Below are positions 23,501 to 29,500 of a DNA stretch of 40,798 nucleotides, piece after piece. The stretch is from a virus (Duplodnaviria; Heunggongvirae; Uroviricota; Caudoviricetes), in the IMG/VR virus record IMGVR_UViG_2634166457_000005, positions 1 to 40,798 of that record; one strand, given 5' to 3'. The position numbers are program-made. Every line of letters begins with the position of its first letter. Within the stretch, counting starts at the first letter, position 1.

Positions 23501-26500
23501 TCTGAGTCTTATATATCAGAACTCCTTCGCTGTCGCTGGGGGCTCCTGTGCTTATGTCGTTTCCCCGATTCGGTTTTGAACGATTACCGAATGTTGAAGA
23601 ATTATGCCAAAATATAGAAAGGATTTACTGCATGAATACCCAATATTTACAGTATGTTCGTGAGCAACTTATGGCAGCTACTGCTGACTTGAACGGAGCA
23701 ACGAAAGGCCAGCTCGAAGCCTGGCAGGAGCATGCACAATTTGATACTGGTACATACAAACGAAAGAAGCCGCGCATTCTGGATGTGGTAACTGGCAAGA
23801 TGATTACGCTGGATAATACGCCGACTTCCGGTAAGCAGTCGTACGCAAAAGGTTCATCCATTGCTTTGGTCAGCCCGGTTGAATTCTCAACCTCTTCATG
23901 GCGCCGCGCGGTTTTGTCTCTCGATGAACATCAGAAAGCATGGTTGCTTTGGTGTTACAGCGAAAGCGTTCGATGGGGGCATCAGGTCACCATAACGCAA
24001 TGGGCATGGAGCGAGTTTAAAGATTTGTTAAGTAACAGAAAAATTGCAGGTAAGACACTGGATCGCCTGAAGACGTTAATCTGGCTGGCTGCACAGGATG
24101 TGAAGAGCGAACTTGCAGGGAGTGAGGCCTATGAATACCAGACACTGGCATCATTGGTGGGAGTGACAACAAAAAACTGGTCCGAGACATTTACTGAACG
24201 CTGGGTTGCAATGAAGCACATTTTTCTACAGCTTGATAGTGATGCTTTATTGCTTGTGACGAAAACACGTTCAAAACAAAAGGCAGCATTTTTACAGCAA
24301 AATATTGCAAAACTGGATTAAAAGCCATATACTTCATGCAAATTTGGTATGTTGTAAAAAATGTATAAACCCGCTGCCGAGTGGTTTTTTTTTATGCCCT
24401 GAGTTGTACTTGTACGGTAAACATGCTGGCTGCTATGTAATAGAGTTTTTTTAGCCTGTAACCTCTTGACGGCATTGAATTGCTTTTGTTATGAGTTGTA
24501 AGCCAATGTTATCATCTTGTATTGGGGTGGTTATGAAGGATGGTGCGCTGCTCAGGAGTTCTTCACTTTTTATTGCCTACATGGGATGCCTTGGATGGGG
24601 GAGTGCTTATTTCTATGGATGGGGTACTTCTTTTTACTACGGCTTCCCATGGTGGATTGTAGGTGCAGGTGTTGATGATGTTGCCAGAAGTTTATTTTTT
24701 GCAGTTATCGTCATTGCTATATTTCTTATCGGTTGGGGTATTGGTGTTGTATTCTTTTTCGCAGTGAAAAGAAAACATTCTATGCAAGAGCTAAATGTAT
24801 TTCGCCTTTATTTTGCTGTGGAATTATTGTTTGTGCCGGCAATTATTGAGTTTTCTATATTGAGACAGAAGATTCAGGTACCTCTTTTGCTACTGTCAGC
24901 AGCGATTGCGCTGGCGGTTACAATTTCGATAAGATCTTATGGGCGATTTTTATCGGTATCATGCTTCTATGATAAGCCATTTATAAAAAAACATTTTTTT
25001 GAGATTGTGATGATTGCTTTTGTGGCATATTTTTGGCTTTTTTCATTTCTGACAGGATATTACAAACCACAGTTTAAGAAAGAATATGAAATGATTAATT
25101 ATAATGATGGTTGGTATTATGTTCTTGCTCGTTATGATAATTGTCTGGTTTTGTCTACTTCTTTCAATGCAGGTAGTAAAAGGTTTGTCATTTATCAATC
25201 AGCACAAGATAAGAATCTTCAGGTTGATATTGTAAGGACCAGAATTTAATTGGCTGCATAAATAATATTTTAAGTTGCAAGTTGGCTATTCGTAGGAATA
25301 GAACCTTAGGCATGCTGAATGCGTTTTCTGAACATTGTTTTATAAACTGTGTCTGCTTGCTGTTGTGATCCTGCTTTTAGTGATGGTGATGATGGATTTC
25401 ACCAGCAGGATAATGTTGGTACTGACTGATGGCGCTCTGGTCTGCGGCATTGTGGTATTGCTGTGGCCGATGATGAAAGAACAGAATGAATAATTCTTGA
25501 CTTTTTTGTTTACTGTTTATTAAAAAATCAACCGCATGGTGAATCCTCCTTGGAGGGGCTAAATGATCGAGTTTTAAGGGCACGTAGCGAGTTCTGTTTG
25601 ATCATTGCAGAACTTAGCGGGAGGCGCCATGCGTACATCACTAATGTTATTTCCTTCTATCATTTTCCTTGTGAGTTCTGGCTGCGCATGGCGCGGCCTT
25701 TTTTTTATGACCTGCCACTGGCAGATGGTCATCCTGTGATTTGATTCCGGTTCCGGCTTTTTAACTCTGTTCCTGTACACGGGAGAAATTCTATGTCGAT
25801 TAATCGTTATGATATTGGTTACAAGAAGTACCACGTATTGTGTTGAGATAGAAAGCCTGGTGCCAGAGGTAAATGCAGCAGCATAATAAAAAAGAGCCAG
25901 CGCAGAAGAGAACGGGTAAAAGAGTCTGCGCTGGCGTGGGGATATTCCCCGTGGAGAAATGATATGTAACACACATCGGGAACCTTTCTATATAAACATT
26001 ATCATTATTGTCAATCATAACAGTCAGGTATTATGACGTTTATGCATCAGGGCCATCAGGAATTAACTGGTGGCTTTTTATTGTTGTCAGCTTCCGGATA
26101 ACGGGAGACGGGGTATGTACCAGATGGAAAAAATCACAACAGGTGTGTCATACACCACGTCAGCGGTGGGGACGGGATACTGGTTACTGCAGCTGCTGGA
26201 CAAAGTCTCTCCGTCCCAGTGGGTGGCAATAGGTGTGCTGGGGAGTCTGCTGTTTGGCCTGCTGACGTATCTGACTAACCTGTATTTCAAAATCAGAGAG
26301 GACCGTCGTAAGGCGGCGCGGGGAAAGTAAAGCGATGAAGAAAAAATACGAACTGGTTGTTAAAGGGATAAATAATTACCCGGATAAGATTACTGTTACT
26401 GTGGCACTGGAAATTGGTGGGTATCCGTCACTGTTGTTGCCAGATGTGGCGATTAGTCTTGACCGTACTGAAGGTGCCACGCTGGAGTTTTACGAAGCTG

Positions 26501-29500
26501 AGGCGAAAAAGCAGGCGAAGCAGTTTTTCATGGATGTTGCTGCCGGGTTATGTGAAGGGGATGGTCCGTTGCCGGAAAAGCGGCCCATCATTTTAGAGGC
26601 GCAGGATGTGTTGATAACCTACAGAGGAAAACTACCGGGAATAATTACTGGTTCTCTGAAGACTCCACCGCTGGCCTGAAGACTTAACATATCCAGGGAT
26701 TTGAAATCGATAAACCCTGATAAATATCCATGAACGCAAAAATCAGATACGGCCTGTCGGCTGCCGTTCTGGCGCTGATTGGTGCAGGGGCGTCTGCGCC
26801 TGAAATCCTCGACCAGTTTCTTGACGAAAAAGAAGGTAACCACACCACGGCATACCGTGATGGTGCGGGGATCTGGACCATCTGCCGCGGTGCCATCCTG
26901 GTGGATGGTAAACCTGTCGTCCCGGGCATGAAGTTGTCGAAGGAGAAATGCGACCAGGTTAACGCCATTGAACGTGATAAGGCGCTGGCATGGGTGGAGA
27001 AAAACATCAAAGTGCCACTGACCGAACCCCAGAAAGCGGGGATTGCGTCATTCTGTCCGTACAACATTGGCCCCGGTAAGTGTTTCCCGTCGACGTTTTA
27101 CAGACGGATTAATGCTGGTGACCGCAGGGGAGCATGCGAGGCGATTCGCTGGTGGATTAAGGACGGTGGCAGAGACTGCCGTATTCGCTCAAACAACTGC
27201 TACGGTCAGGTCTCACGGCGTGACCAGGAGAGCGCGCTGGCGTGCTGGGGAATTGACAGATAAGCAGAATATTTTGCTGGAAAATGCGGTTTGCTCACAC
27301 GGGCGGATAACACGAAATCCTGCGAACTGGCAAAAACTAAGTGAATAAAAGTAAAACCCCGTTTGTTGGCCGCAAGCGGGGTTTTGTGTTTCCTGACTCC
27401 GGAAAAGTCAAAGGAGAAAGTGTGTTTGATTTTAGCAAACTGATTCGGGAGATTCGAATGATGGCTGAAAAATTATCCACCTGGAAGTTCATCCTTATCT
27501 GGCTGGTGTTTGTGATTATGGCTTCCGGTTATTTCATTGGTCAGATACGCTGGTGGTGAAATGAACCGCGTACTGTGCGTGGTCATCATTGCCCTGCTGG
27601 TGGCCTGTGGTGCGCTTAGTCTGGGGCTGAATCATTACCGTGATAACGCCATAACCTACAAAGAGCAGCGCGATAAAAAAGTCAGTGAGCTGGAGCTGGC
27701 AAATGCAACCATTACTGATATGCAGCAGCGCCAGCGTGATGTTGCTGCACTTGATGCCAGATACTCGAGGGAATTAGCCGATGCGAGAGCTGAAAATGAA
27801 ACTCTTCGCGCTGACGTTGCCGCTGGTCACCGCAGCCTGCGGATCAACGCCACCTGTCCAGGTCCCGTGCGTGAAGCCACCGGCACCGCCCGCGTGGATA
27901 ATGCAACCGGCCCCCAACTGGCAGACACCGTTACACGGGATTATTTCACCCTCAGAGAGCGGCTGATGACGATGCAGAAGCAACTGGAAGGGGCACAGGA
28001 CTATATCCGCACTCAGTGTACTAAGCAGGCTTTTTATTATCCGGAGGATGTATGAAGAAATTACAGGTAACGGTAAAACCTTTTCAGGGAACAATTCCGT
28101 TCCGTGTTTTGCAACATGGCCGTGTTCTGCTTGAAGAGGTGTTCAGAGGTAAATGCACTGAATGTTATTCACGAACATATGAAGTGAATGCCACGCATGA
28201 AGAATTCACCGTTGAGTGTGTGATGAATACTGATAAATGCCGAATGGTATCCGCTGAATTACAGCCAGTGTGTTGAGCGACCTTATTATCCATGCGCGGT
28301 ATTGTCGCCGTATTCCTGCATTAACAGAGACCGCAGCCCGACAGGGAGACTCCTCTGCGAGAGTGTGCGGGGATAATCAAAAACGATACACACCGGGGTT
28401 TACCGCGTAAACGGAGCGCGGCGTTCTCCCCTCATGGTCGCCCGTCCGGTGCGATGGTGGAAGAAACTGGAATCTGTTCAATAAAAAAACTGCCGTGTTG
28501 GAGTCACAGCAGTAATGTACTGATTGGGTAGAAGATTATTATTGTTATGCTTTATTCTTATTCTATATGGCTGATTATTTCAATTCGGAATTAATACAGC
28601 TAATGTCTGTGAGTTTTTATAAATTCAGCAATATAAAGAAATAGTTATATGAACAGCCATCGCAGAGCATACTGTGTATCATTCTTTTTTATAGTCAACT
28701 GACGGGCATATTTTATGTCTGCTGCCAGCTCCCGGCGGCAAGATTCAATGACCCACGCAGAAAAGTTTCCTGAACCTTTCAGATCAAGAGCGATGTTAAT
28801 TTGTTCAATCATTTGATTAGGAAAGCGGATGTTGCGGGTTGTTGTTCTGCGGGTTCTGTTCTTCGTTGACATGAGGTTGCCCCGTATTCAGTGTCGCTGA
28901 TTTGTATTGTCTGAAGTTGTTTTTACGTTAAGTTGATGCGGATCAATTAATACGATACCTGCGTCATAATTGATTATTTGACGTGGTTTGATGGCGTAGA
29001 TGCACGTTGTGACATGTAGATGATAATTATTATCATTTTGCGGGTTCTTTCCGGCGATCCGACAGGTTACGGGGCGGCGACCTCGCGGGTTTTCGCTATT
29101 TATGAAAATTTTCCGGGATCCATGTCCGGTTTCTCTGCAAGTTAACTATATGAAAAATATAAAAACAGGCTGTCCGTGAACCGGACATGTGCAAAAAACG
29201 GACATGTAAACCGGACATGACCGGTTTTGTGCTGATTGTGAGGTAAGAGTTTTTGCGAGGTGAGGAGTGGCTACGCAGACTGAAGTTGCCAGGCATTTGA
29301 GTCTGACCGATCGCCAGCTTCGCAGATTGCAGAAATTACCGGGTGCCCCGGTCTCGAATAAGCGAGGGCAACTGGATCTGGATGCCTGGCGCGATTTTTA
29401 CATATCGTATCTGAGAAGAAGTAAAAACGATGTGCCTGATGGCGATAGCGAAGACGACTATGAAGAGAAATTGCTTATTGCCAGATGGGAACTGACAGCA

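Follow-up and report, generated by a model that had tools for sequence, protein, structure and literature searches.

Introduction

The closest described lysis cassettes to the one considered here are those of phages 21, 434 and 933W, which share with it the same family of S21-type class II holin (pinholin), a signal-anchor-release (SAR) type endolysin, spanins, and the order of these genes. In these cassettes, however, the endolysin gene either abuts the holin gene or starts 4 nucleotides (nt) past its stop codon, and all three phages lyse normally. A second point of comparison is the cryptic prophage Qin of Escherichia coli K-12, in which ydfR (b1555), the type member of the YdfR family, occupies the order essQ (an S21-type holin), a 4-nt gap, ydfR, rrrQ (a 177-amino-acid (aa) lysozyme) and rzpQ. 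Here we describe a stretch of 40,798 nt from a Caudoviricetes virus (IMG/VR record IMGVR_UViG_2634166457_000005, positions 1 to 40,798; the whole stretch is called the window below), in which a 114-aa open reading frame (ORF) stands between the pinholin and SAR endolysin genes. A previous sequence-only reading of the window had noted this ORF as an extra gene, soluble in its product, and had offered two accounts of it: a regulator of lysis, or unrelated cargo that is expressed late.

Results

Family identity and spread

The ORF (26335-26679, + strand, with an ATG start in the ORF listing of the window) encodes a protein that matches Pfam DUF1327 (PF07041) over residues 1-112, at 155.4 bits against a cut-off of 25 (E 4.7e-46), and phrog_406 at 1.8e-64; identical copies are named 'YdfR family protein' in RefSeq. 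The window gene is a member of an already catalogued family, and its recognition at this position was a correct observation and not a discovery: the sequence-only reading placed the gene properly and missed its YdfR/DUF1327 identity, shared with genes in K-12 and in phage H-19B.

The records of at least 990 contigs include precisely this 114-aa protein. Complete identity extends to the Stx1 phage H-19B, where the gene was left unannotated in the 1998 record, to BP-4795, and to many Stx1a and Stx2c phages, and copies with 95-98% identity occur in YYZ-2008 and the Stx2 phage 86. By megablast, 2923 of 5426 complete E. coli genomes contain related sequence, at up to eight places per genome, and 1258 have at least 80% of the gene covered. 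The family comprises 282 clusters at 90% identity, and 91 representatives at 50% identity among 1.84 billion proteins. Full-length relatives are essentially confined to Escherichia and Shigella; two metagenome-bin matches labelled 'Veillonella' and 'Bacillota' look like E. coli contamination. Two database entries (P0001 and P0002; 169 and 196 aa) contain internal tandem duplications of the N-terminal domain, which may be assembly artefacts or real duplications.

The junction between holin and endolysin genes

Coordinates and hydropathy both agree with the earlier description of a soluble 114-aa product encoded 4 nt past the pinholin stop and ahead of the SAR endolysin gene. The pinholin probably starts at M1 (26115, giving 71 aa) or M4 (26124, giving 68 aa), and is 93% identical to the S protein of 933W and approximately 77% identical to S of the phage 434/mEp460 type. 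Its 3' end contains the Shine-Dalgarno-like GGGGAAAG (26320-26327), followed by the TAA stop (26328-26330), the spacer AGCG, and the ATG of the YdfR-family ORF at 26335, such that the gap is exactly 4 nt. The maximum Kyte-Doolittle value of the ORF over 19 residues is 1.18, compared to 1.83 for the holin, 1.67 for the SAR domain, 2.13 for a 45-aa ORF further downstream and 2.82 for Rz; 'soluble' is therefore a reasonable description, as the protein has no transmembrane-grade segment. The endolysin N-terminus, MNAKIRYGLSAAVLALIGAGASAP, is weakly hydrophobic and SAR-like. Neither a promoter-like site on the + strand upstream of the ORF, nor a terminator between the holin and endolysin genes, nor any Rfam family within 26335-26729 was found.

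Comparison with cassettes lacking the gene bears out the earlier statement that holin and endolysin genes are adjacent in phage 21, as S21 (39866-40081) and the SAR endolysin gene (40081-40578) abut in the curated genome OL657228.1. They also abut in the curated genome of phage 434. In 933W, the endolysin ATG lies 4 nt past the holin stop, which in the alignment is the start site of the YdfR-family ORF in the window; there the same holin 3' end drives the endolysin gene instead, via the holin-embedded GGGGAGAG. The two sequences differ by a clean presence/absence indel of approximately 395 nt, which carries the YdfR-family gene together with a new endolysin leader, so that the gene is indeed extra with respect to 21, 434 and 933W. 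The window endolysin gene also differs from that of 933W in its first codons. The leader that replaces the holin-coupled start is predicted to fold at -7.6 kcal/mol (RNAfold) in the context of its hairpin. All endolysin genes that follow DUF1327 genes, irrespective of tail type, have the leader ATAAATATCyATG, which lacks a Shine-Dalgarno sequence (window 26716-26732; L092 4339-4355; K-12 locus L091 approximately 4055-4070, where it coincides with the last ydfR codons). As this leader is shared by the DUF1327-linked cassettes and absent from 933W, endolysin translation may be controlled differently in the two types of cassette.

Protein anatomy and selection

Alignments resolve the family into a constant N-terminal domain of approximately 74 residues and interchangeable C-terminal tails. 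AlphaFold2, supplied with a 30-sequence alignment, models residues 1-74 as a strand-strand-strand-helix fold (predicted local distance difference test score, pLDDT, 72-93). For the tail it predicts disorder, and pLDDT stays under 50 starting at residue 75 (deeper model) or residue 73 (first model). In the same alignment E54 is invariant, and Y5, L7, V9, Y53 and A57 are conserved in at least 90% of sequences; the window protein has the N-terminal domain and the signature Y5 ... Y53-E54 ... A57. The domain is acidic, with an isoelectric point (pI) of 4.6-5.1 across the family and approximately 5.1 in the window. Stand-alone homologues of 72-76 aa exist. Besides the 40-residue tail of the window protein, the tail types comprise this same tail followed by one of two coiled-coil-like segments (proteins of 176 or 183 aa), two unrelated short tails (103-aa proteins in K-12, and 104-aa proteins in mEp460 and E. 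albertii), and longer fusions (206 and 287 aa). Compared to the window protein, K-12 YdfR has the same N-terminal domain at 47% identity (residues 1-74), but differs in the loop that joins strands 2 and 3 and in its tail (ending ...EKLSEKVESYLQHQYSFKIENPANKHERPHHKYL); further, the ydfR stop overlaps the rrrQ start, whereas in the window the two genes are separated by a 50-nt spacer.

The ratio of non-synonymous to synonymous substitution rates (dN/dS) for the domain is 0.20-0.28 between alleles, at dS of 1.3-2.1, and the corresponding ratio for polymorphisms (pN/pS) is approximately 0.45 among 28 haplotypes of the window allele, one of which has an internal stop. Given these values, the ORF is a real, constrained coding sequence and not a chance reading frame. 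Alleles differ by outright replacement of the strand 2-3 loop (residues 25-38). For this loop, positive selection gave no clear signal in a test that was rendered uninformative by the replacement and by saturation of substitutions.

Genomic context of relatives

In 79 of 80 IMG/VR loci the gene directly upstream of DUF1327 encodes an S21-type holin; the one exception is truncated by the end of its contig. The same order is found in all eight loci of the genome collection, in five further loci (L092-L096), and in every phage record that was cross-checked. Downstream, the DUF1327-bearing loci examined have a 177-aa lysozyme gene approximately 90% identical to that of the window. These Escherichia cassettes stand behind different Q antiterminators and ahead of different terminases. 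Conservation among cassettes with S21-type holins and SAR endolysins, which the sequence-only reading had suggested as a check, has two sides: the slot is constant in Escherichia, yet the family is present in 101 phage records compared to 436 with an S21-type holin, or about a quarter (tblastn).

Relative to the window, long-form loci have an insertion of 465 nt at codon ~112, which encodes a C-terminal extension of the DUF1327 protein and a convergent 86-aa gene (phrog_2572). In the E. coli phage Evi, the interval between S and R contains a bare DUF1327 gene of 72 aa together with a shared hairpin and a gene for 98 aa in convergent orientation. More distant, stand-alone homologues of 72-86 aa are found in prophages of Citrobacter, Sodalis and Cronobacter, and in metagenomic prophages; the alignment of these homologues was too divergent for scans of the collections, and their loci were found by exact-protein look-up. 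Their positions are after the tape-measure gene, between gpM and gpL, between gpL and gpK, or between the lysis and terminase modules, and none of the six context types examined outside Escherichia places them between holin and endolysin genes; in Cronobacter, DUF1327 is approximately 2.8 kb from a different holin/endolysin pair. Linkage of the family to lysis genes is thus constant in Escherichia, and found in none of the six context types beyond it.

The distant homologues always run in the direction of the late genes. Five of the six context types have a small convergent gene immediately behind DUF1327, encoding 95 aa in Citrobacter, 94 aa in Cronobacter, and 79, 93 and 182 aa in three metagenomic or genomic prophages. 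Together with the partners in E. coli long forms and in Evi, these lie no more than 45 nt from the DUF1327 3' end or overlap it, and fall into at least five families without detectable mutual similarity. One pair, DUF1327 with a 93-95-aa protein (phrog_10490), recurs at three distinct genomic positions. That DUF1327 genes are regularly paired with convergent cargo in late operons emerged from the present analysis, and suggests a mobile two-gene unit.

Discussion

A probable accessory gene of the late operon

Three statements on the window gene are well supported: its membership of the YdfR family, its placement for translation with the lysis genes off the late transcript, and its dispensability for this type of cassette. 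It is very probably an accessory gene of the late operon that is not required for lysis. Of the two accounts given by the sequence-only reading, cargo is favoured over a lysis regulator, because phages 21, 434 and 933W do without the gene, because its product has no membrane segment, and because distant homologues lie outside lysis cassettes. The fuller explanation, in which the accessory protein acts on a target in the host cytoplasm, is held tentatively, at a little below an even chance. According to this explanation, a small cytoplasmic protein would be encoded in the late (Q-antiterminated) operon as an optional module, and not as a core component of lysis. Its ORF would use the ribosome-binding site within the 3' end of the pinholin gene; given that site and the late operon, the product would appear in the late lytic phase alongside the lysis proteins, an expectation drawn from gene layout. 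The functional unit would be the 74-residue strand-strand-strand-helix domain; the 40-residue tail would be variable and probably disordered, a side product of recombination at the right-hand edge of the module. The most likely activity of the domain would be to bind a host cytoplasmic target, for which the best candidate, by extrapolation from the 47%-identical K-12 homologue, would be RNA along with the N-terminal, catalytic half of RNase E (and RNase G). In the late phase the protein might then adjust RNA processing or decay, with no action on membrane or cell wall.

The candidate target derives from the only functional study of YdfR that we found, which concerns the K-12 allele (RNA Biol 2026; PMC13232886). 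A two-hybrid screen baited with RNase G recovered residues 1-72 of K-12 YdfR, which correspond exactly to the conserved domain, and these residues gave stronger signals with RNase E 1-597 (PMC13232886). RNase E 1-598 and nucleic acid resistant to DNase were purified from lysates together with Strep-tagged YdfR, overproduction of ydfR left growth unimpaired, and YdfR was placed with SlyX, YegJ and ThrB among 'group II' interactors of the RNase E N-terminal half (PMC13232886). We consider it possible but rather doubtful that RNase E and RNA are the relevant target of the window protein.

Several observations weigh against an RNA-directed accessory role. Overexpression of ydfR altered few transcripts, and the contact between YdfR and RNase E may be bridged by RNA, because the YdfR preparation was made without nuclease treatment (PMC13232886). 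A single study underlies the link to RNase E, and the allele it used shares only 47% of domain residues with that of the window; an acidic domain would also be unusual for a direct RNA binder. Foldseek searches of PDB and viral models returned nothing at E <= 0.001, and a profile search of PDB sequences found no relatives with a solved structure. In Escherichia, DUF1327 has been seen only between an S21-type holin and a 177-aa SAR lysozyme, which fits a role linked to lysis. Finally, with the gene inserted, the endolysin gene no longer starts at the holin-coupled ribosome-binding site; this displacement could influence lysis in cis, independently of any action of the protein. With respect to fold, a double-stranded-RNA-binding domain (helix-strand-strand-strand-helix) was also considered and rejected, at an hhalign probability of 0.7% against a small alignment of such domains entered by hand.

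Proteins that bind RNase E include T4 Srd, phiKZ Dip, and the host proteins RraA/RraB and RapZ. If the K-12 result transfers, the window protein would resemble these as a small protein made during infection that contacts the catalytic N-terminal half of RNase E, as RapZ does (for RapZ and RraA as RNase E binders, see PMC13232886); no relationship of sequence or fold to Srd, Dip, RraA/RraB or RapZ was found, however. The lambdoid morons (lambda bor and lom, HK97 gp15) offer a further parallel in their presence or absence at gene boundaries of the late operon, and their mobility between late sites. Classical morons come with a promoter and a terminator and are active in lysogens, whereas the window gene has neither element of its own and is co-oriented and translationally linked with late genes; in related loci it is the convergent neighbours, rather than DUF1327, that look like classical morons.

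Alternative explanations

The strongest competitor to the accessory role is that the gene sets the timing of lysis. The protein might bind the charged cytoplasmic C-terminal tail of the pinholin, or the few residues that the membrane-tethered SAR endolysin exposes to the cytoplasm, and so delay or sharpen triggering; alternatively, the effect might arise in cis and lower the endolysin-to-holin ratio, as the gene takes the holin-coupled ribosome-binding site and leaves the endolysin behind a non-Shine-Dalgarno leader. The strict Escherichia order of S21-type holin, 4 nt, DUF1327 and 177-aa SAR lysozyme in the loci examined is consistent with such a role, as are the overlap of ydfR and rrrQ in K-12 and the confinement of the conserved leader to DUF1327-linked cassettes. 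We nevertheless consider it unlikely. Cassettes of phages 21, 434 and 933W function without the gene, the protein has no membrane segment or signal peptide, none of the six distant context types falls inside a lysis cassette, and the strict slot is explicable by one old insertion spread via homologous recombination in conserved flanks.

Dedicated regulators of lysis such as the antiholins S21-71, P1 LydB and T4 RI, and the releasin gp25 of phage Mu, act, as far as is known, in or at the membrane or periplasm. The window gene shares with them (for releasin, PMC9239132) small size, a position in or next to lysis cassettes and, as expected from its placement, co-expression, but its product lacks a transmembrane-grade segment or signal sequence, and its relatives are found outside lysis cassettes. 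A holin, antiholin or other membrane-acting regulator was accordingly rejected, as no transmembrane, SAR or signal segment is present (maximum 1.18). The Keio ydfR mutant does appear among the raw hits of an envelope-leakiness screen (PMC3879167 supplement), which would favour a role in lysis; as this comes from raw screen lists only, we do not count an envelope-integrity phenotype as evidence. A polar effect on the downstream SAR lysozyme gene rrrQ is likelier, because the kan cassette lies directly upstream of rrrQ.

Decidedly unlikely is that the window gene is the surviving half of a mobile two-gene module, in which DUF1327 neutralizes or regulates the convergent cargo (which is probably expressed in the lysogen), or a conflict of sense and antisense RNA, during lytic growth. 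The window copy would then have lost its partner through a 465-nt deletion, and the indel that separates the window from the long form does carry the partner gene. The closeness of a convergent small gene to the DUF1327 3' end in many relatives, and the recurrence of one pair at three positions, also point in this direction. The partners nevertheless belong to at least five dissimilar families, which makes a specific protein-protein antidote unlikely, and solitary copies (the window allele and those of the K-12, mEp460 and Sodalis types) are common and constrained, with pN/pS of approximately 0.45 within the window allele and dN/dS of approximately 0.2-0.3 between solitary alleles. Co-location may equally reflect shared insertion hot spots for accessory genes.

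Quite improbable is a role in late-phase counter-defence, whereby the protein, as a small acidic decoy or inhibitor, would keep a host sensor of abortive infection from responding to late structural or lysis proteins. The protein is small, acidic and, by prediction, expressed late; its strand 2-3 loop is replaced between alleles; and the gene is always embedded among late genes. Against this, there is no significant structural match, no experimental hint and no clear signal of positive selection. Neither PADLOC nor NCBIfam gave matches at E <= 0.1 for the ORF or any for the convergent partner genes, although the PADLOC library covers defence and not anti-defence proteins. Lastly, a non-functional, decaying ORF carried along by the late operon, as the disordered and highly variable tail, the internal stop in one of 28 haplotypes and the frequency of truncated or duplicated forms in databases might suggest, is very improbable, given a domain dN/dS of 0.20-0.28 at saturating dS, conservation of the domain across Enterobacterales genera, and intact copies on at least 990 contigs.

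Implications

The window gene represents a very common late gene of lambda-like prophages of E. coli, abundant in Stx phages and with related sequence in about half of complete E. coli genomes, yet none of the fold and profile searches assigned it a function. The transcript to which it belongs also encodes lysis proteins and, in Stx phages, toxin, so that a role in RNA decay or in lysis timing, if true, would bear on toxin release. Parts of the accessory-gene explanation and of its rivals might also be combined: the DUF1327 domain could be a late-phase binder of RNase E/G and RNA that travels with antisense cargo, manages the late transcript where it meets convergent transcription, sets the stability or processing of the holin-endolysin messenger RNA, and thereby influences lysis timing and toxin release. 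This combination is improbable as a whole; if true, it would apply to the present prophage type, and to Stx1 and Stx2c phages in which the identical gene lies just downstream of stx.

Coordinates and neighbouring features

Features of the lysis region, and related loci with a convergent partner gene, are collected in Table 1.

Table 1. Positions of the lysis-cassette features in the window, and of paired DUF1327 and convergent genes in related loci (numbered within each locus).
Feature	Position	Strand	Basis and remarks
S21-type class II holin (pinholin) gene	26115..26330	+	PF04971 'Bacteriophage P21 holin S' 1e-32; phrog_9876/phrog_20 'holin'
Holin 3' end and junction	26320..26334	+	GGGGAAAG, TAA stop, 4-nt AGCG spacer; read from sequence, aligned with 933W
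YdfR/DUF1327 N-terminal domain	26335..26556	+	Codons 1-74; conserved part of family; PF07041 4.7e-46
Variable C-terminal tail	26557..26679	+	Codons 75-114 and stop, GDGPLPEKRPIILEAQDVLITYRGKLPGIITGSLKTPPLA; predicted disordered; one of at least 5 tail types
Endolysin-gene leader, 50 nt	26680..26729	+	No Shine-Dalgarno; small hairpin 26694-26719; conserved ATAAATATCC directly before ATG
SAR-type lysozyme (endolysin) gene, 177 aa	26730..27263	+	PF00959 Phage_lysozyme 1.4e-24; phrog_7 'endolysin'
Small single-pass membrane ORF, 45 aa	27422..27559	+	Context feature, endolysin-Rz interval; phrog_6632 match to residues 28-72 of 72-aa ORF
Rz i-spanin gene	27561..28055	+	PF03245 9.9e-48; phrog_13; end of lysis cassette
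Embedded Rz1 o-spanin ORF	27781-27966	+	ORF listing; inside Rz
DUF1327 and convergent gene, locus L084	4001-4553		
DUF1327 and convergent gene, locus L089	4001-4517		
DUF1327 and convergent gene, locus L105	4001-4486		
DUF1327 and convergent gene, locus L107	4001-4526		
DUF1327 and convergent gene, locus L108	4001-4821		
DUF1327 and convergent gene, locus L113	2501-3040		
DUF1327 and convergent gene, locus L092	3501-4239		

The 45-aa membrane ORF lies within a longer ORF (27341-27559), ends 1 nt before the Rz ATG, and probably starts at a GTG behind AAGGAGA. It could be an unrecognized membrane component of the lysis cassette; the same slot holds the anti-repressor gene 'ant' in 933W and WGPS2, and in WGPS2 also a 48-aa ORF. 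Just past the endolysin gene, and inside the late operon, a hairpin (AAAACCCCG...CGGGGTTTT, then GTGTTT; 27349-27385, +) looks like a terminator, and was missed by the terminator scan because its loop exceeds 8 nt. Upstream of the holin gene, a non-coding stretch of 860 nt contains a sub-threshold match to Rfam STnc100 (25504-25709, +; 37.7 bits against a gathering score of 47), which ends at a strong terminator-like hairpin (25680-25698), and a weak Esr41-like Rfam match lies at 25886-25975 (-). Two further ORFs of the late region upstream of the holin are additional accessory genes. The first encodes 319 aa on the opposite strand (22199-23158, -), and related E. coli loci have a 'lipid A deacylase LpxR family protein' in its region, to which it may correspond. 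The second (24491-25249, +; phrog_1521) encodes a probable membrane protein of 252 aa, the equivalent of which in related genomes is probably the RefSeq 'DUF6645 domain-containing protein'.

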